A stretch of 16,169 bases of DNA from a virus (Duplodnaviria; Heunggongvirae; Uroviricota; Caudoviricetes), in IMG/VR virus record IMGVR_UViG_2540341091_000001, positions 1 to 16,169 of that record; one strand, 5' to 3'. The stretch's first letter is position 1, and each line of letters opens with the position of its first letter. The position numbers and the translations under genes are program-made. Positions 1 through 13,244 of this stretch are shown piece by piece. Under the pieces are notes generated by a model. The model worked only from the letters and a program-made list of their open reading frames with translations. It was not told the origin of the DNA and did no database searches.

Positions 1-474
1 ATGTACAGTCCGGTACAAATAGCCAATAAATTCATAACGTTGGGAAACCAACATCATAATCCTCTGACCCACATGCAACTGCAGAAGCTTACTTATATTG
101 CCCATGGTTACTATTTAGCATTAACAGGTAAGCCTTTGCTCAATGAATGTGTCTCCGCGTGGAAGTACGGTCCAGTTATTCCTGGAATGTACGATGCTTT
201 CAAAGACTATGGGAATAAACCTGTTACGAATGTAGCAGTAGCTCCTTTTGGTGGCATCGTTACTATGGATCCGCAAGCAGAGAGCATTATCGGGGCTGTT
301 TATAAGTTTTACGGCTCGAAAAATGGAATTGAGTTATCAACTCTAACTCATATGCCAGGTACGCCTTGGTCACAAGCTTATAATGGTATTGGCTCGTCGA
401 TCATCTCAAATGATGCGATCAAGGCTTATTATCATGATTTATTGAATAACCGACAGCAATGTCAGGGCCTCTGA
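1..474 (+). CDS. Panacea-domain (DUF4065; GepA/SocA-like) protein, putative antitoxin or phage-associated protein; start coincides with window edge so the true N-terminus is unverified
   Basis: ORF-track translation contains the motifs I associate with the Panacea domain (LQKLTYIAHGYYLALTGKPL, AWKYGPVIP, THMPGTPW). Followed 22 bp later by a co-directional membrane-protein gene. Family assignment is from memory. Confidence 0.6.
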   Translation: MYSPVQIANKFITLGNQHHNPLTHMQLQKLTYIAHGYYLALTGKPLLNECVSAWKYGPVIPGMYDAFKDYGNKPVTNVAVAPFGGIVTMDPQAESIIGAVYKFYGSKNGIELSTLTHMPGTPWSQAYNGIGSSIISNDAIKAYYHDLLNNRQQCQGL

Positions 475-496: not shown

Positions 497-1045
497 ATGT
501 CTCATAATTCAGATATCTATAAACTGATCGGAGCGGCCGCAGGTGTTGAAAATGGTCGCTCTGAAGCATCCTTAAACTCTACTGACAGTCAAGAGCAGGC
601 TTTTGAATCCGCATTTGAGCCGTCTAATCATGAACGCGATGATGATTCTTCTTCAGAAAATAAGGCTATTCTGGAGGAAGAAGAGTTTGGTTCTAATACT
701 GGTGCATTGCATGAGTTTATGCAGCAGAACAGAATGGACAGTCTTCAAGCTCAGCTTGATATGCTCAAATCACAAGTACGGGATAAGATAGCTGACGCAA
801 CTGGTAAAGAAATAGACAATGAGCTCCGGACAAAAATGGCATCATTCACGGTTTGGTTTATGTCGTGTTGGTGCTTATTCGTTGTCGCAATGTTTACATC
901 GTTTCTTATTGCACATGAAGGAAAGGCTCCAGTTGAAGCGATCGTTGCATTACTAGGTACAAGTACAATTAGTATTGTTGGTTTGGTTGGTTTCGTTGTT
1001 AGTGGATTGTTCAAATCAAGAAAAGATAGTGATAAAGAAAAATAA
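497..1045 (+). CDS. hypothetical protein with acidic, Ser/Glu/Asp-rich N-terminal half and two C-terminal transmembrane helices; candidate toxin/effector partner of the Panacea protein
   Basis: ATG at 497 preceded by AGGGA at 488-492. Hydrophobic stretches WFMSCWCLFVVAMFTSFLIA and AIVALLGTSTISIVGLVGFVVSGLF. No recognisable catalytic motif. Confidence 0.5.
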   Translation: MSHNSDIYKLIGAAAGVENGRSEASLNSTDSQEQAFESAFEPSNHERDDDSSSENKAILEEEEFGSNTGALHEFMQQNRMDSLQAQLDMLKSQVRDKIADATGKEIDNELRTKMASFTVWFMSCWCLFVVAMFTSFLIAHEGKAPVEAIVALLGTSTISIVGLVGFVVSGLFKSRKDSDKEK

Positions 1046-1078: not shown

Positions 1079-1348
1079 TTAGTTATATTTTTTTTCCGTT
1101 CTGACTTTTTCCCACTCAGCTCGCCCTTCTTCCCGTCTTTTGTCAATATATTCCGCAAGATCCTGAATGTTGATGCAGCGTTTTGCTTTTTGTGATGTAC
1201 CGATGCGATATGTAGGTACAGGCAACTTACAAGCGTTTGCTTTTGCTTCTGCTGTGGCTGGACTCATACCAAAGTATTTTTGACTAACTGCTGAGAGTTC
1301 AATGTTTGGGGTATTGAATTCAGCCATCAGTAAAAACAAGGTATTCAT
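1079..1348 (-). CDS. PrtN-like (pyocin-activator family) small DNA-binding regulator
   Basis: 89 aa; ATG at 1348 with GGAG 7 nt upstream; segment GMSPATAEAKANACKLPVPTYRIGTSQKAKRCINIQDLAEYIDKRR resembles the PrtN/phage activator family as I recall it. Confidence 0.5.
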   Translation of the reverse strand: MNTLFLLMAEFNTPNIELSAVSQKYFGMSPATAEAKANACKLPVPTYRIGTSQKAKRCINIQDLAEYIDKRREEGRAEWEKVRTEKKYN

Positions 1349-1384
1349 ATCATTTCTCCATCATAACCGGCTGCACCCGGTGAG

Positions 1385-2167
1385 TTACTTATTCATTTCA
1401 ATAATATTATTTTCTATCATTGATTTATTTAAAACCAAAGAAGGAGCAAGATGGTTGTCTATTTTAAACAATGCATAACTTTTAAACTGTTGGTGATATC
1501 CGTAACTAATAAGGATGCTAGAAAAATCTCTTAATTCATCTTCTTTTAAAAAATTAAAATGAAATGGGTTGTCACCATTTATGAACAATGAAACATCTAT
1601 TATGCAGTATTTCTCTCTGTTGTCATTTGCATAGAAAAAAATATAAGACATTCTGTTTGTTAAGACAATGCCATTAAATTTTCTTATGTCTGTAGCTATT
1701 TTGTTTTCCATGTTTGGTGCCACATATTTATTTTCAGAAATACATTTAATTTCATCTCCAGATGTCGTGATTATATAAAAATGAAACTTATCATAAATAT
1801 CTAACTTAACTACGCCATCATTATTATAAAGGCTGCTAAATTTTGGTGGTTCAACTTTTAAAGAATCATAGTTCTTTAAAAGAAGAGGGGAGTCAAATTT
1901 AATAACTTGTAGTATCCCTTTACCTTCAACCTCCATATTGATTGAAGATATAGCAATTGCATTATCTCTTTTATTATTCAGGATTATGGTTGATATATGC
2001 ATGTCATATATTCTACTTGCATTTGCTGAATACGACACTGTCACCTTTTTTGATATTTTTTGCACGCCAAAATATATAGTGAAGGCAGCGGCAAGAATAG
2101 ATAAGAATTTAATGTCAAATAAGGACCATAGCCACATTAGTTGCTCAATTGCTTCAGAGTTAATCAT
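1385..2167 (-). CDS. hypothetical protein with an N-terminal transmembrane anchor, AT-rich orphan (moron-like); start codon uncertain (alternatives at 2179 or 2221)
   Basis: Long minus-strand ORF in markedly AT-rich DNA. N-terminal hydrophobic helix LMWLWSLFDIKFLSILAAAFTIYFGV. The track start at 2221 is TTG and sits upstream of the promoter predicted at 2204-2232, so an internal ATG (MINSEAIEQ...) is preferred. No known domain recognised. Confidence 0.45.
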   Translation of the reverse strand: MINSEAIEQLMWLWSLFDIKFLSILAAAFTIYFGVQKISKKVTVSYSANASRIYDMHISTIILNNKRDNAIAISSINMEVEGKGILQVIKFDSPLLLKNYDSLKVEPPKFSSLYNNDGVVKLDIYDKFHFYIITTSGDEIKCISENKYVAPNMENKIATDIRKFNGIVLTNRMSYIFFYANDNREKYCIIDVSLFINGDNPFHFNFLKEDELRDFSSILISYGYHQQFKSYALFKIDNHLAPSLVLNKSMIENNIIEMNK

Positions 2168-2203
2168 TTGCTTTACCATTATCGCTGTAATACAACACAT
2201 GTG

Positions 2204-2232
2204 TATATATACGCAATGCAATTATTTTGCAA
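2204..2232 (-). promoter_or_regulatory. candidate sigma70 promoter for the 1385-2167 gene
   Basis: Minus strand reads TTGCAA (plus 2227-2232), 17-bp spacer, TATATA (plus 2204-2209). Confidence 0.3.
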
Positions 2233-2353
2233 GTGCTTCATTTACTATCAATAGCTTCGTCACGTTATTGTTTAATGGTTCTTTATAGGGGCGGCAATAG
2301 TTAAAATTATCGCTTCCGTAAACGCCCCCGCAGGGGCATTTGCAGTAATGAAA

Positions 2354-5036: not shown

Positions 5037-5258
5037 ATGAAAGCGTATTGGGACTCTTTAACCAAAGAACAGCAGGGTGAGTTGGCCGGAAAAGTTGGCT
5101 CAACACCAGGCTACTTACGGCTGGTTTTCAATGGTTATAAAAAAGCCAGTTTTGTGCTGGCTAAAAAACTTGAGCAATGCACGTCAGGTGCAATTACGAA
5201 ATCTGACTTAAGACCGGATATCCCACAGCCAGTATCAGCGATTTGCTGGTTGTGGTGA
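5037..5258 (+). CDS. Cro/YdaS-like small DNA-binding protein
   Basis: 73 aa from ATG 5037 with GGAGG at 5022-5026; HTH-like segment LAGKVGSTPGYLRLVFNGYKKASFVLAKKLEQCTSGAI. The longer track ORF (4734-5258) overlaps cI antisense and is rejected. Confidence 0.6.
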   Translation: MKAYWDSLTKEQQGELAGKVGSTPGYLRLVFNGYKKASFVLAKKLEQCTSGAITKSDLRPDIPQPVSAICWLW

Positions 5259-6014: not shown

Positions 6015-6025
6015 GTGGGGTGAAT

Positions 6026-9000
6026 ATGGCAGTAAAGATTTCAGGTGTACTGAAAGACGGTGCAGGTAAACCGGTACAGAACTGCACAATCCAGCTGAAA
6101 GCAAAACGTAACAGCACCACGGTGGTGGTGAACACGGTGGCATCTGAAAATCCGGATGAAGCCGGGCGTTACAGCATGGACGTTGAGTACGGTCAGTACA
6201 GCGTTATTCTGTTGGTGGAAGGCTTCCCGCCATCGCATGCCGGGACCATCACCGTGTATGAAGACTCACAACCGGGTACGCTGAATGATTTTCTCGGTGC
6301 CATGACGGAGGATGATGCTCGTCCGGAGGCACTGCGCCGCTTTGAACTGATGGTGGAAGAGGTGGCGCGTAACGCGTCCGCAGTGGCACAGAACACGGCA
6401 GCCGCGAAGAAGTCAGCCAGCGATGCCAGCACATCAGCCCGGGATGCGTCGGCTTCAAAAGAGGCAGCAAAATCATCAGAAATGAGCGCAGCCTCTTCGG
6501 AAACGGCGGCAGGAAATTCCGCGAAGGCCGCAAAAACGTCTGAGACGAATGCGGATAACAGCGCACAGGCGGCAGCGGCCTCACAAACTGCATCGGCAAA
6601 CTACGCGACAGCCGCCAAAAAATCAGAAACCAACGCGAAAAATAGCGAGGCAGCAACAAAGAGCAGTGAAACAAACGCGGCGAAATCTGCGGCGGACGCA
6701 CTTAATTATCGCAACCAGGCGCAATTAATTGTTGGCGATAATATCGGTCTTGGCTCAGCCCCGCGTGATTGTCCTGATATTTCCGGCAACCCATCAGGGT
6801 ATATCGGATTTATGCGCATTATGAGTAATGCAAAAGGCTTTCCATCGATTGCATCCGGTGAAAGCAGTCTTACGGGGTTTATTAGTCAGGTAGATGGAAC
6901 ACCAGCGTATACAGGTGTATTTCAGGGATGGGCTACGCGCTCGCTTTATACTTATCGCTGGAATCCGACAATAGGCCCGCAATGGACACGCCACGCAAGA
7001 AAAGATGAGGTTATCCGATTTCAGCGTTCAAGCGACACAAGAACCATCATTTTATCTACTGACGTTCAGGCGGACGGCTGTTACTTACAGGTTGATGCTG
7101 ACGGTCAGTGGGGCGCATTTAACCCTAAAGCTGGTAGATGGCAACCGCTCGCAGTTGCGCAAGGTGGCACAGGGGCGAATGATGCAAGTACAGCGCGCTC
7201 TAAACTTGAAGTCATGTTTGAAGCAAAAACTGGCCTTGATGCGAATACGAACTTAAACGATATAAAAGGTACTACAGCCGGTTTTTATTACCAACCAATG
7301 TCTGCCAACGCAAAGCCAGAACTAAATTACCCGATACAGCTTGCTGGTGCATTGTTAGTGCAAAGAACTGGTGCTAATGGTAGTGATGGTTGTATCCAGA
7401 GCTATTTTGTATATAACAATTCATCAATTCTTTATAGAAGGATATATACCAGCACACAAGGTTGGAGTGTATGGAAAAAAATAGTATTAACAGAAAGAAT
7501 TGAAGAAGGCGAATCGACTACTTACGTTTATTCGAATTACTCACCATCAGCGCCACGACTTCAGGTGTCAACATCTGGATTGTGGGGTTGCCATAACGGA
7601 TCGTCATGGGTTCCATTACCTATTGGACAAGGAGGCACTAATGCGGCAACTGTTGATGGTGCCAGAACGAATCTTGGCTTAGGTAGGAACAACAGCCCTC
7701 AACTTAACAGTCTATTTCTTGATAGATATAGTGATTCGACCAATACATACACATCTAGTGGAATTCTCCATACAAGACTGTTAGCAACTGACAGCACTGT
7801 GCGTCTTGGTGCTGATATGTATGTTGAGACTTTATCAAATGAGCCAGGTCAATTAACAATAAGGTTTACATACGATGGTTCAACTGGTGCTTCAAAATAT
7901 CTAAACCTTAACTCAGAAGGTAATTTAATTGTAGATAGTGCGATACTGAGATCAACGGTTGAAAAACCTTTACAAATAAGGAGCGCTAACCCAGCAATAA
8001 GATTTAATGAAACAGATCGCCCGGCTAACACGCCTACTTATACTCTCATTGCTAATGCTGGTGACTGGTTTATTCAGAAACGCGATTATGATGATGCCGG
8101 AAGCGTTAGTAACGCAATTGCATATAATTTCGCAAACGACAGAATTGATGTGCAAAATCTTAAAGCGTCTGGGTTAATTACAGCTAACTCAGGAATCGCA
8201 ACATTAACAGGTCATGACTGGAACGCTCAGCATACTGATAACGTCGACAAATTTAGACCAATTGCAGGCAGTACAAACGGCCCGGCAGGCTCTATGGTTC
8301 TTGGCGGCATTCATGTTCAATTTAGTAAAAATTATGCTGTGCAGTTCGGAGGCCGCAATTCCGGTTTTTGGGGAAGAACAATTGAAAATGGAACGACGCA
8401 GGAATGGAAGAAATTACTAACAGTAGACGATCTCAATTCATCTACCGATCTTGCTGTCAGGTCATTAACCACATCTAACCCGGTAAAATCTGGCGGAGGG
8501 CGAATTGATGTCCTTGGAAGCACGTCAGACTATAGCAAAATGGATTGCTTTGTACGTGGGTTTGATAGCACCGGTAATTCTCTCGCGTGGGCGTTGGGTT
8601 CATCAGTCGGCGTAAGTAAGATGCTGTCGCTAAAAAATTTCTTTAGCGGAGCTGAGATACTGCTAAATGGTAATGACGGCGCGGTTCAACTCAAAACAGG
8701 TGCTGTTAACGGTGCTAAAGCGCAGGCGCTCACTATCAACAAGGATGAGGTTAACTCAACTGTTGATTTAACTCTTACAAAACAAACAGGGACTGGCAAT
8801 CGTTTTGTTTTACAGAACTTAGGTAATACAGAACTACCATTTGCTGTCAAGGTGTGGGGTTCAGGTGATCGACAAAACGTTTTTGAGGTTGGAACGTCTG
8901 CCGCGTATCTGTTTTATGCTCAAAAAACATCGTCAGGTCAGCTGTTTGATGTAAACGGTGCTATTAACTGTACAACACTGAATCAGTTATCAGACCGCGA

Positions 9001-9741: not shown

Positions 9742-9804
9742 GGTTTGTGAGTTTAAATAGTGTGTTTATTGCGATATATTTTAATGACTTAATGGATTAC
9801 ATAT

Positions 9805-10668
9805 CTATGATATTCCTGAAATATCCTCTTCAAGCTCTTTTACTGATTTCGCAATTTTAAATTTAAACTTCCTCTCTATTTCACTATTGCTAAGTTTTTT
9901 TTCCTTCTCTTTACCTATCCACATAGAAACAAGTTCTCGTTTCTGAGATATATGTAGATTGTCAAAGTTAGGTATGTATTTAAAAGTCTCCGCTCTACCT
10001 CTGCGGAGTTCATAGAAAGTTTTAATCAAAGATTTTGGTTTTATTTCTGATGAAAGGCCGAATCGGCGGATAAGATTATTGATAGTATGATTAACAGAGC
10101 GAAGTTGAGCTGTTGAGGTTATTTGTGAGAAGTACGATACCCATCCCAATCGTTTACCTTCAAACACACATCCCGTAATTCTGAGATTTAGTTTCCACTG
10201 ACAATATGCAACAGCTCGTTCTTTATCACGCTTACTTTTAGCTTGTAGTAGAGCGTGCCTATATGCAGTAAAAATTTTTGCTAAGGATGACTCAAATCTA
10301 AGAATGCTCTCATGTTTTATCAATAATTCTCGATTTTCTATGTGGTATCCCAAAAAGTTAAAACTTTCATCCAAACTGCCTACTTTGGATTTTGAGTTCT
10401 CTTCATTTAATGGATGTGGGTTTAAATTTAATGATTGAAGCTTATCAATGATATGAGAAGCTATTTTTGTTGCTTGATATTTTGGTGTTAAAATAAGAAT
10501 GTCATCAACGTATCGCATGTACCATATGTCATGCATTTTATTGATTTCATCATCGAAATTAGATAGTGATATTTCAGCTAAAATGTTTGATATCGCTAAT
10601 CCCTGAGGTACTCCTCTGGTATTATTAGGGATACCTTTGCTTCCTGTGGTTCCACTTACAGTAGGCAC
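9805..10668 (-). CDS. reverse transcriptase, C-terminal segment (motifs 3-7 and a 170-aa C-terminal extension); in the -1 frame relative to the N-terminal segment
   Basis: Translation has GVPQGLAISNILAEI (motif 3/4), YMRYVDDILIL (the YxDD active site) and FNFLGYHI (motif 7). The track start is a GTG; this frame is open upstream to a TAG at 10708-10710, so it spans the A6G site of the upstream segment. Confidence 0.8.
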   Translation of the reverse strand: MPTVSGTTGSKGIPNNTRGVPQGLAISNILAEISLSNFDDEINKMHDIWYMRYVDDILILTPKYQATKIASHIIDKLQSLNLNPHPLNEENSKSKVGSLDESFNFLGYHIENRELLIKHESILRFESSLAKIFTAYRHALLQAKSKRDKERAVAYCQWKLNLRITGCVFEGKRLGWVSYFSQITSTAQLRSVNHTINNLIRRFGLSSEIKPKSLIKTFYELRRGRAETFKYIPNFDNLHISQKRELVSMWIGKEKEKKLSNSEIERKFKFKIAKSVKELEEDISGIS

Positions 10669-10685
10669 GATTAATGATGATGTTA

Positions 10686-11174
10686 TTAACTGTCTAATTT
10701 CTTTTTTCTAATTTTATTTTTTATTGCATTAATTATCAATTTATGTTCAATTGAAGGATAGAAACTTTTAAGATCTATTTTTGCATATTCAGCATATAGA
10801 CTGTTGTTTAATGCTTCTTTCAATGAGTCAATTACTGTATGTGGTAGTTTTAATCTGGACTTAGGATATATTTCCGTAAGGCATTCACAGAGAGCTCTAA
10901 GAGTAATTCTGTCCCTAGCAGTTGGTATGGAAATCTGTCTGGGTGTAGAGTTAGCGCCTTTAGATATTAATTTTTCTTTATATGCTGTAAATTTGTAATT
11001 GCCAGAATTAACCTTTTCAAAAATGAAAGTGATCTCATTTTTTATTGTCAAATCAAGTTTTGATGGGCGAATCCGATCTATGCCAATCGCTCCTGATTCT
11101 TTGATTTTTTCAGAGTATACTTTTAGAAGATTTTTTTTCGAGAATGACTTTTTAAAAATTCTGCTTGCAGTCAT
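10686..11174 (-). CDS. reverse transcriptase, N-terminal segment (fingers, motifs 1-2); frame ends 15 nt after an A_AAA_AAG heptamer
   Basis: ATG at 11174 (the track begins at a TTG at 11180). Motifs GIDRIRPSKL, PRQISIPTARDRITLRAL and AKIDLKSFYPSI. Start overlaps the 3' end of the upstream membrane-protein gene by 23 nt. Confidence 0.75.
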   Translation of the reverse strand: MTASRIFKKSFSKKNLLKVYSEKIKESGAIGIDRIRPSKLDLTIKNEITFIFEKVNSGNYKFTAYKEKLISKGANSTPRQISIPTARDRITLRALCECLTEIYPKSRLKLPHTVIDSLKEALNNSLYAEYAKIDLKSFYPSIEHKLIINAIKNKIRKKKLDS

Positions 11175-11703
11175 AGTCAATCCAAAGATATATTAATGGG
11201 AGTATATAAAGTGCGGCAGTAATAAATATTCGAAGTAATATCCATAAAATAACAATTATTTTTTCTTTTTGTGTGGGGATCCTCGTCTTAAGTCCAACTT
11301 GAGTTACCCTTGAAATTTTATCATCTATGTCACGGTGATTCTCAACCTCATTGAGCAAATTAAAATATTTTTCTTTCTGTTCAAGAGATAACTGTTGACT
11401 GGTGGTAATGTCAAAATAGAGTCGCTGTAGTGCAATATAATTCCTTCTCATGGCTATTGCTCGACCACGAAAATCTAGGTTAGATACGATCAGAGAAATA
11501 CCCAGTAGAGCCACTGAAAGTATCGCCGCAACGACATCTGTATTATCTCCTAGAACCTTTGGAAATCGCAACGTTACAATTGAAAGTACCGCACTCAATA
11601 TAGCATACCAAACGAGGATAAATTGAGAGTGTTTTTCAAGCCATTCTAGTCGATGGTGCGCTTGGATACGTGCTTTATATGTAAACCAAATATTGTCATG
11701 CAT
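11152..11703 (-). CDS. multi-pass membrane protein (two N-terminal TM helices plus a C-terminal hydrophobic helix), possibly SLATT-like; candidate effector partner of the RT
   Basis: 183 aa; hydrophobic segments FILVWYAILSAVLSIVTL, VVAAILSVALLGISLIVS and IIVILWILLRIFITAALYILPLIYLW around a charged helical middle. Translationally coupled to the RT. SLATT assignment is an unverified guess from architecture. Confidence 0.6.
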   Translation of the reverse strand: MHDNIWFTYKARIQAHHRLEWLEKHSQFILVWYAILSAVLSIVTLRFPKVLGDNTDVVAAILSVALLGISLIVSNLDFRGRAIAMRRNYIALQRLYFDITTSQQLSLEQKEKYFNLLNEVENHRDIDDKISRVTQVGLKTRIPTQKEKIIVILWILLRIFITAALYILPLIYLWIDYDCKQNF

Positions 11704-11894: not shown

Positions 11895-12015
11895 TACAAG
11901 TGAATGGTGTCCAGAGATGATGAATAGACTGGCCCCCTGAATCTCCAGACAACCAGTATCACTTAAATAAGTGATAGTCTTAATACTAGTTTTTAGACTA
12001 GTCATTGGAGAACAG

Positions 12016-12381
12016 ATGATTGATGTCTTAGGGCCGGAGAAACGCAGACGGCGTACCACACAGGAAAAGATCGCAATTGTTCAGCAGAGCTTTGAACCGG
12101 GGATGACGGTCTCCCTCGTTGCCCGGCAACATGGTGTAGCAGCCAGCCAGTTATTTCTCTGGCGTAAGCAATACCAGGAAGGAAGTCTTACTGCTGTCGC
12201 CGCCGGAGAACAGGTTGTTCCTGCCTCTGAACTTGCTGCCGCCATGAAGCAGATTAAAGAACTCCAGCGCCTGCTCGGCAAGAAAACGATGGAAAATGAA
12301 CTCCTCAAAGAAGCCGTTGAATATGGACGGGCAAAAAAGTGGATAGCGCACGCGCCCTTATTGCCCGGGGATGGGGAGTAA
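12016..12381 (+). CDS. insC: IS2 transposase OrfA (InsC)
   Basis: [41 protein letters not shown]... is the IS2 InsC sequence; ATG 12016 with GGAG at 12007-12010. The track ORF from 11971 is an upstream extension. Confidence 0.9.
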
Positions 12382-13244
12382 GCTTAGTCAGCCGTTGTCT
12401 CCGGGTGTCGCGTGCGCAGTTGCACGTCATTCTCAGACGAACCGATGACTGGATGGATGGCCGCCGCAGTCGTCACACTGATGATACGGATGTGCTTCTC
12501 CGTATACACCATGTTATCGGAGAGCTGCCCACGTATGGTTATCGTCGGGTATGGGCGCTGCTTCGCAGACAGGCAGAACTTGATGGTATGCCTGCGATCA
12601 ATGCCAAACGTGTTTACCGGATCATGCGCCAGAATGCGCTGTTGCTTGAGCGAAAACCTGCTGTACCGCCATCGAAACGGGCACATACAGGCAGAGTGGC
12701 CGTGAAAGAAAGCAATCAGCGATGGTGCTCTGACGGGTTCGAGTTCTGCTGTGATAACGGAGAGAGACTGCGTGTCACGTTCGCGCTGGACTGCTGTGAT
12801 CGTGAGGCACTGCACTGGGCGGTCACTACCGGCGGCTTCAACAGTGAAACAGTACAGGACGTCATGCTGGGAGCGGTGGAACGCCGCTTCGGCAACGATC
12901 TTCCGTCGTCTCCAGTGGAGTGGCTGACGGATAATGGTTCATGCTACCGGGCTAATGAAACACGCCAGTTCGCCCGGATGTTGGGACTTGAACCGAAGAA
13001 CACGGCGGTGCGGAGTCCGGAGAGTAACGGAATAGCAGAGAGCTTCGTGAAAACGATAAAGCGTGACTACATCAGTATCATGCCCAAACCAGACGGGTTA
13101 ACGGCAGCAAAGAACCTTGCAGAGGCGTTCGAGCATTATAACGAATGGCATCCGCATAGTGCGCTGGGTTATCGCTCGCCACGGGAATATCTGCGGCAGC
13201 GGGCTTGTAATGGGTTAAGTGATAACAGATGTCTGGAAATATAG
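12339..13244 (+). CDS. insD: IS2 transposase OrfB (InsD), normally made as an OrfAB fusion by -1 frameshift at A6G (12333-12339)
   Basis: 301-aa DDE-type integrase-fold protein matching IS2 InsD; slippery A_AAA_AAG at 12333-12339 lies in the orfA/orfB overlap. Confidence 0.9.

Follow-up and report, generated by a model that had tools for sequence, protein, structure and literature searches.

A horizontally exchanged, AT-rich cassette in a dusA prophage remnant encodes a predicted membrane-tethered protein with a possible role in phage exclusion

What is the role of a strikingly AT-rich gene placed directly beside the excisionase gene of an Escherichia coli prophage? The question is raised by positions 1,385 to 2,232 of IMG/VR virus record IMGVR_UViG_2540341091_000001, a caudoviral sequence of 16,169 nucleotides that was analysed over its whole length (hereafter the window) and represents what is left of a lambdoid prophage that integrated at the E. 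coli dusA gene. A preliminary description, made from the letters alone, had noted here an open reading frame (ORF) with a promoter of its own and had suggested a horizontally acquired moron, possibly active in superinfection exclusion (Sie) or defence. With a probability of roughly one half, we read this gene (referred to below as the cassette gene) as a stand-alone determinant of phage exclusion or abortive infection that is tethered to the membrane. Its expression in the lysogen, the topology of its product, the anti-phage activity and the mechanism are what we infer. The points counted for a defence role are the sharp breaks that delimit the cassette, its mobility, and the location of distant family members beside restriction-modification (R-M), abortive infection (Abi) and toxin-antitoxin (TA) genes. 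Retention in the same remnant of a Panacea/SocA-like pair and a UG17 reverse transcriptase (RT)-SLATT system was also counted for it.

An AT-rich gene in an exchangeable cassette

The coding sequence lies at 1385..2167 on the minus strand (stop codon 1385-1387) and specifies 260 amino acids (aa; MINSEAIEQL...IEMNK; RefSeq WP_000610754.1), in agreement with the length first estimated. The mechanically called ORF around it is longer (1385..2221, minus strand, TTG start, 278 aa), and the start codon had been regarded as uncertain. This point could be settled: the RefSeq entry, annotated as "hypothetical protein", begins at the ATG at 2167, and the N-terminus M-[IL]-N is common to this entry and all 11 of the 11 close homologues at the equivalent position, which places the start at ATG 2167. 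At the level of sequence comparison, the gene was shown to be real and subject to purifying selection. The ratio of non-synonymous to synonymous substitution rates (dN/dS) was 0.42-0.48 against an E. coli variant of 92% identity and 0.07 against a Citrobacter homologue over a long range, while values between close E. coli variants, based on few substitutions, ranged from 0.42 to 0.85. The gene was found in 98 of 5,426 complete E. coli genomes, and the identical protein is present on 668 contigs.

The visible AT-richness of the region was borne out by the composition of the gene, with a GC content of 28.7% (26% at third codon positions), compared with 40% in the excisionase gene xis, 46% in yfdQ, 45.5% in the cI-like repressor gene and 53% in the host gene dusA. 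Homologues in 10 other enterobacterial loci were similarly low in GC (29-33%) relative to their 2-kb flanks (38-54%, mostly 40-54%). A composition that differs from the surrounding phage genes, which is one hallmark of a moron, is therefore present.

The boundaries of the foreign DNA were defined by blastn comparison with sister dusA prophages (E. coli E47, phage mEp460 and K-12 CPS-53), in which homology ends at 1380 and restarts at 2305. Accordingly, the gene and 137 bp of DNA on its 5' side make up a discrete, AT-rich and unique cassette of 924 bp (1381..2304), small and well delimited enough to be directly testable. The corresponding slot is filled in E47 by 2.35 kb of early genes (a 3'-5' exonuclease gene, a hypothetical gene, a phage protein gene and yfdR) and in CPS-53 by yfdT, one further gene and yfdR. 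One joined match covered this xis together with yfdQ in each of 96 complete E. coli genomes; the single full-identity row listed among them spans 2,100 bp, the summed length of both flanks and the cassette, and none of the matches listed showed an empty site between xis and yfdQ. These comparisons support the view of the gene as accessory DNA that is exchanged horizontally in the form of a discrete cassette, and they mark the xis-yfdQ slot of dusA-integrated lambdoid prophages as an exchange point for cargo. The proposed horizontal acquisition was thus upheld as accessory exchange, on the evidence of the two breakpoints and the occurrence in unrelated elements, but not in the strict Hendrix/Juhala sense of a moron. 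Instead of separating two genes that are neighbours in related phages, the cassette stands where the sister prophages carry the 2.35-kb block, and because early genes are replaced and a terminator of its own is absent, it is not a textbook moron.

Predicted architecture and family of the protein

An AlphaFold2 model of the 30-kDa protein, built from an alignment of 34 sequences (pLDDT 91, pTM 0.78), consists of a helix (residues 4-38), an immunoglobulin (Ig)-like β-sandwich (42-141), a disordered linker, an α/β domain (156-247) and a terminal helix. The N-terminal transmembrane (TM) helix of the preliminary description was recovered as the single hydrophobic segment at residues ~13-38 (codons 13-38, 2054..2131, minus strand; Kyte-Doolittle 1.7), with no second such stretch elsewhere. 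The Ig-like sandwich (1745..2044, minus strand) contains a conserved N65-K-R-D68-N loop and a P94-L-L-L-K98 motif, and the small α/β domain (1427..1702, minus strand) was delimited by both the model and sequence conservation; the C-terminal helix 248-259 is poorly conserved. Across the wide family, conservation extends to F29, Y32, F33 and the invariant K37 within the TM segment, I58, N65, D68, the invariant P94, K98 and S111 in the sandwich, C142, for which some members have G, V or L, and Y179, G194, F202 and N205 in the α/β domain. These positions do not resemble a catalytic constellation, and no catalytic signature was evident in the model. Conservation peaks in the TM core, whose mean top-residue frequency is 0.51, compared with 0.40-0.42 in the globular parts, and since the core exceeds all other segments in this respect, the helix may do more than anchor the protein. 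The net charge flanking the helix is zero or negative on the N-terminal side and +2 to +3 on the C-terminal side in nearly all 34 diverse members. By the positive-inside heuristic, the protein would more probably adopt an N-out/C-in topology, in which a short N-terminal tail is outside and the Ig-like and α/β domains are cytoplasmic.

The protein matches PHROG 14996 (function unknown) over its full length (residues 1-260 on profile positions 1-260, E 2.9e-176, 585 bits). A word-indexed search retrieved 11 close clusters from E. coli/Shigella, Citrobacter and Klebsiella, all of whose source names read "hypothetical protein". In a profile search of 1.84 billion representatives, 220 clusters (50% identity) were found at E<=1e-3 and 140 at E<=1e-10, nearly all of the 220 being 230-280 aa long with an unchanged layout. 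The family therefore exceeds PHROG 14996, as it includes members on plasmids and chromosomal islands. The earlier statement that no motif is recognisable proved accurate: searches of Pfam, NCBIfam and PADLOC returned no match for the protein or for 34 diverse relatives, and sequence and profile searches of the PDB returned none for the protein. A Pfam scan extended to E 10 gave a sole sub-threshold hit to the Ig-like family PF24498 (16 bits, cut-off 28), and no publication mentioning WP_000610754 was found in a literature search by accession. The family is uncharacterised and absent from the curated libraries searched, and would represent a new family of a known functional kind. As for the suggested check by remote homology and structure, it revealed no housekeeping phage function, only the Ig-like plus α/β model of an unnamed family.

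The N-terminal hydrophobic helix followed by an Ig-like sandwich is also found in the archaeal type IV pilin and FlaF/FlaG fold. At Z below 8 and 8-16% identity, this likeness is that of Ig-like domains in general, and the C-terminal α/β domain is missing from pilins. A pilin identity was rejected, as the prepilin-type leader and cleavage motif are absent and the N-terminus is net negative.

Genomic company and possible function

In close relatives, the family gene is located directly 5' of xis-int modules of three unrelated types. Six distinct enterobacterial contexts have it immediately 5' of, and co-oriented with, a small xis-like ORF, and the upstream neighbour varies among the xis-int contexts (yfdQ or a gene whose product is a ParB-HTH protein or a protein of 242 or 477 aa). 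Elsewhere, a Klebsiella prophage carries it in its nin region, in Buttiauxella it stands beside an HNH protein gene, and in a further setting it is alone and divergent between an antirepressor gene and a DUF4145 gene on the opposite strand. By tblastn, it was further detected on two small Acinetobacter plasmids, one of which carries MazEF and an HNH protein gene next to it. A conserved partner gene was considered and rejected, as the neighbours differ by context and the 477-aa Citrobacter and 427-aa Acinetobacter neighbours are unrelated. Lacking a conserved neighbour, the family gene, if functional, works as a single gene.

Loci of more distant members came from look-ups and from metagenome contigs scanned with a degenerate DNA pattern, which gave 43 matches, 17 of them true family members according to a hidden Markov model. 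In these loci, where restriction genes of types I, II and IV are represented, the gene adjoins HsdR, a YgjP fragment, HsdS and HsdM (L057), YgjP (L073), HsdS (L033), or an Eco57I-type methylase together with RE_XamI (L036). Other members lie next to GmrSD_C (L054), AbiJ_NTD4 (L061), an FRG-domain protein (L058) and HNH nucleases (L011 and L038), and further adjacent genes encode a Tse2-like toxin, RelB, YafO, ParE, a MobA relaxase and integrases. Such company is typical of defence genes, and it lends real though circumstantial support to the exclusion or defence role that had been suggested.

Two recurrent arrangements were observed in addition. On two unrelated metagenomic contigs (L057, 838-8066; L073, 1948-3485), the family gene directly follows a gene for a YgjP-like (WLM-type) metallopeptidase, which in L057 is itself joined to a complete type I R-M operon. 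In all four of the listed Citrobacter contexts (L002-L005), the 477-aa gene (6015-7448), which had no Pfam or PADLOC match, is found ~550 nt 5' of the family gene, and the rest of the island varies, with a P4-like satellite in one context and CbtA/CbeA islands in two. The 477-aa gene may be a second item of cargo, or it may simply belong to the same module as the integrase.

Among defence proteins that have been studied by experiment, SNIPE (PMC13190303) as well as PdpSau and AbiP (PMC10127798, PMC13064643) combine a single TM helix with a cytoplasmic body. AbiP/AbiC and PdpSau are encoded by single genes of ~250-280 aa, carry an N-terminal membrane helix, reside on plasmids or prophages and are constitutively present (PMC13064643, PMC10127798). 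The cassette gene resembles them as a single gene in accessory positions with a predicted N-terminal membrane anchor, but whereas the cytoplasmic part of AbiP and PdpSau is basic and binds nucleic acid, that of the cassette protein is a β-sandwich with an isoelectric point (pI) of 6.6. Kinship with PdpSau was rejected, since hhalign of the family profile gave a probability of 0.4% and covered the TM helix only. AbiC is set apart by the missing PADLOC match, as the PADLOC set presumably contains an AbiC model, and AbiP by the basic cytoplasmic part described for it. SNIPE (PD-lambda-1) is a single-gene E. coli system with a short periplasmic N-tail, a single-pass TM helix and a cytoplasmic body of DUF4041 and GIY-YIG nuclease, which cuts phage DNA at injection as a membrane-bound enzyme (PMC13190303). 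The same topology is favoured for nearly all 34 members of the present family by the charge heuristic. However, the cassette protein and its 34 relatives contain neither DUF4041 nor GIY-YIG, and the TM helix is their most conserved part, whereas SNIPE is least conserved in its N-terminal region (PMC13190303). The combination of an Ig-like body and a conserved TM helix in the absence of an enzyme domain is unlike SNIPE, AbiP/PdpSau and known Sie proteins.

In the favoured mechanism, the single N-terminal TM helix would tether the protein to the inner membrane, and the gene would be carried singly by prophages and other mobile elements to the advantage of their host. On the cytoplasmic side of the membrane, the Ig-like module, which is non-enzymatic, might bind a component of the phage, after which the conserved TM helix would hinder a membrane step of infection, such as genome entry or early establishment; alternatively, the helix might self-associate and damage the membrane. 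A more specific and rather doubtful version is a membrane-tethered catcher, in which the TM helix docks to the genome-entry channel of the host and the Ig-like domain captures the ejected tape-measure or pilot protein. Infection would then be halted during injection or directly afterwards, with no nuclease involved, and the mechanism would be distinct from those of SNIPE, AbiP and the Sie proteins. If the gene proves protective, a fairly widespread family (~220 clusters at 50% identity), ranging over enterobacterial prophages, Acinetobacter plasmids and R-M-linked islands, would be added to the single-gene defences that act at the membrane. Should it have no effect on phages, the gene would be just another AT-rich ORFan of a prophage.

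The transcription context bears on this reading. As expected from the early-left placement described before, the gene lies on the pL-side strand, 3' of the cI-like repressor gene, yfdP and yfdQ and directly 5' of xis. The promoter-like sequence TTGCAA-N17-TATATA does exist at 2204..2232 (minus strand), within the cassette leader and 37 nt 5' of the ATG, and it is kept in the 92%-identity variant (L019). The term "near-consensus" nevertheless overstates it, because only 8 of 12 consensus positions match (4/6 + 4/6) and the -7 T, the final T of the -10 hexamer, is missing. Two overlapping alternatives can be drawn from the sequence on the same strand, TTGATA-16-CAAAAT (2251..2224) and TATACA-18-GATAAT (2207..2178). 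Downstream, the gene for a PrtN-family excisionase (xis, 1079..1348, minus strand; phrog_1300 excisionase) starts 36 nt 3' of the cassette gene. Fold and terminator scans of this gap revealed no convincing terminator, only a 5-bp hairpin (z -0.54) without a U-tract, which makes co-transcription of the two genes likely. In L030 and L031, opposite-strand genes flank the family gene on both sides, and there it should have its own promoter.

Several observations weigh against the defence reading. The neighbourhood evidence comprises ~25 loci inspected by hand without a background statistic. A generic promoter scan of 1000-2600 yielded 7 sites where 6.9 were expected, and as there is no excess over shuffles, TTGCAA-N17-TATATA cannot be called significant from sequence alone. 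The gene runs in the direction of the pL (early-left) operon behind a weak promoter-like element, and with no terminator of its own before xis, it could be an early lytic gene that is not expressed in the lysogen. The predicted topology is not secure either. Ig-like sandwiches are more frequent outside the cytoplasm, and the top fold matches (archaeal pilins, FlaF/FlaG and usher chaperones) are extracytoplasmic. Moreover, the soluble part is not basic (K+R 25, D+E 26), in contrast to AbiP and PdpSau. PADLOC gave no match for the protein among 5,027 models at E<=1, and the accession WP_000610754 is absent from the DefensePredictor supplements.

Four competing explanations were also considered. 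Small prophage membrane proteins encoded near the lysogeny or integration module include HK97 gp15, P22 SieA/SieB and lactococcal Sie2009, and Sie proteins are often AT-rich with a promoter of their own. The cassette protein could be of this kind with the opposite topology, its helix serving as a signal anchor and its Ig-like domains blocking genome injection from the periplasm by binding either an inner-membrane receptor or the incoming tail-tip or tape-measure complex, a mode of action that has been proposed for HK97 gp15 and Sie2009. Carriage by prophages near xis/int in most enterobacterial loci and the lack of conserved catalytic residues are in keeping with such a role. We nevertheless consider it quite unlikely, given that the charge distribution favours N-out/C-in throughout the family, that the N-terminal region is net negative and has no signal-peptide n-region, and that the lone near-invariant cysteine has no conserved partner. 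Occurrence outside prophages, next to R-M operons or on small plasmids, is also less typical of a phage-specific Sie protein, and the family differs from SieB, Imm and other Sie families in the absence of a Pfam match and in its predominantly cytoplasmic predicted bulk. A role for the phage itself, as an early-left lytic accessory expressed from pL (host take-over, Kil-like membrane effector or counter-defence), would suit the position on the same strand as and 3' of the pL-side genes yfdP and yfdQ, directly 5' of xis, the replacement of ordinary early genes of sister prophages (exonuclease, yfdR and others), and the missing terminator and weak promoter. It is still improbable in view of relatives on non-phage elements, including small plasmids and positions behind type I/II R-M genes or next to TA genes, of the need for an own promoter in L030 and L031, and of the retention of an intact gene in a remnant stripped of replication and most structural genes; by tblastn, the gene was absent from all 50,697 sequenced phage isolates.

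The gene may alternatively be cargo unrelated to defence, acting in the envelope, in stress or in maintenance of a plasmid or other element, or an AT-rich hitch-hiker silenced by H-NS and without current benefit. H-NS silences xenogeneic DNA of very low GC content in enterobacteria, and the 28.7% GC of the gene is typical of such DNA. The moderately low dN/dS between close E. coli variants and the lack of any function in the annotations of the family fit this explanation as well, which keeps it a minor though not negligible contender; strong conservation of length, architecture and motifs over ~220 clusters, the long-range dN/dS of 0.07 and the repeated adjacency to restriction, Abi and TA genes are at odds with it. 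Regulation of xis or int by an accessory factor of the excision/integration module would explain why the gene is directly 5' of a small xis-like ORF in six enterobacterial contexts, but it is highly improbable, as the xis/int partners belong to three unrelated families and the gene is also found far from recombinases, in the nin region, in R-M operons and on plasmids. To our knowledge, there is also no precedent for a membrane-anchored Ig-like protein among recombination directionality factors.

The remnant and its other cargo

The window contains, in order, the Panacea/SocA-like gene, a 182-aa gene, xis, the cassette gene, yfdQ, yfdP, the LexA-family cI-like repressor gene and a truncated cro, followed after a 7.8-kb deletion by lom, a tail-fibre gene, UG17 RT and SLATT, IS2, dinI, the integrase gene and dusA. 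The deletion junction lies at 5212-5222, where 7.8 kb (ymfL to most of gpJ) are absent relative to the prophage in NZ_OW848980, which is otherwise 99.9% identical to the window; the two aligned pieces overlap by 11 bp. At this junction, the cro-like ymfT loses 15 nt and is fused to the 3' end of gpJ. The deletion leaves a non-viable remnant that keeps mostly cargo genes, in which the cassette gene is intact although replication genes and most structural genes are gone.

Just 3' of yfdQ in the conserved flank, a G+C-rich hairpin (2316..2345, minus strand) is followed by UUUACGG. The 64-nt stretch containing it (2290-2353) folds at -23 kcal/mol (z -2.8), and the terminator scan made no call at the hairpin, which has only three U's behind it. 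The hairpin may act in the pL operon as an attenuator or a weak terminator, which would separate the cassette from pL read-through. No Rfam RNA family was found within the window.

At the attL end, a gene with a Panacea/SocA-like antitoxin domain (1-474, plus strand; NCBIfam SocA_antitoxin, E 1e-27, below cut-off) is followed after 22 nt by the 182-aa gene (497-1045, plus strand; phrog_13343, function unknown). Judged by their sequences, the two look like a PanA-type TA pair; PADLOC gave nothing significant for either protein, only chance-level matches (E ~0.02-0.03). The E47 sister prophage carries a different Panacea variant and its homology to the window ends at 1098, so the attL end is also a cargo exchange point. 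Towards the other end, a UG17-class defence-associated RT and a SLATT gene occupy 9804-11703 (minus strand). The intact copy of the RT (L010) matched PADLOC RT_UG17 at E 1e-158, and the RT-associated SLATT partner (11152-11703) scored E 1.5e-56. Compared with the intact 456-aa gene in NZ_OW848980, the RT frame of the window breaks at an A-run after ~residue 157, which means that the gene is a pseudogene or that an error was made in sequencing. Near the integrase end, an IS2 element of the IS3 family (~11970-13244, plus strand) separates the SLATT gene from dinI.

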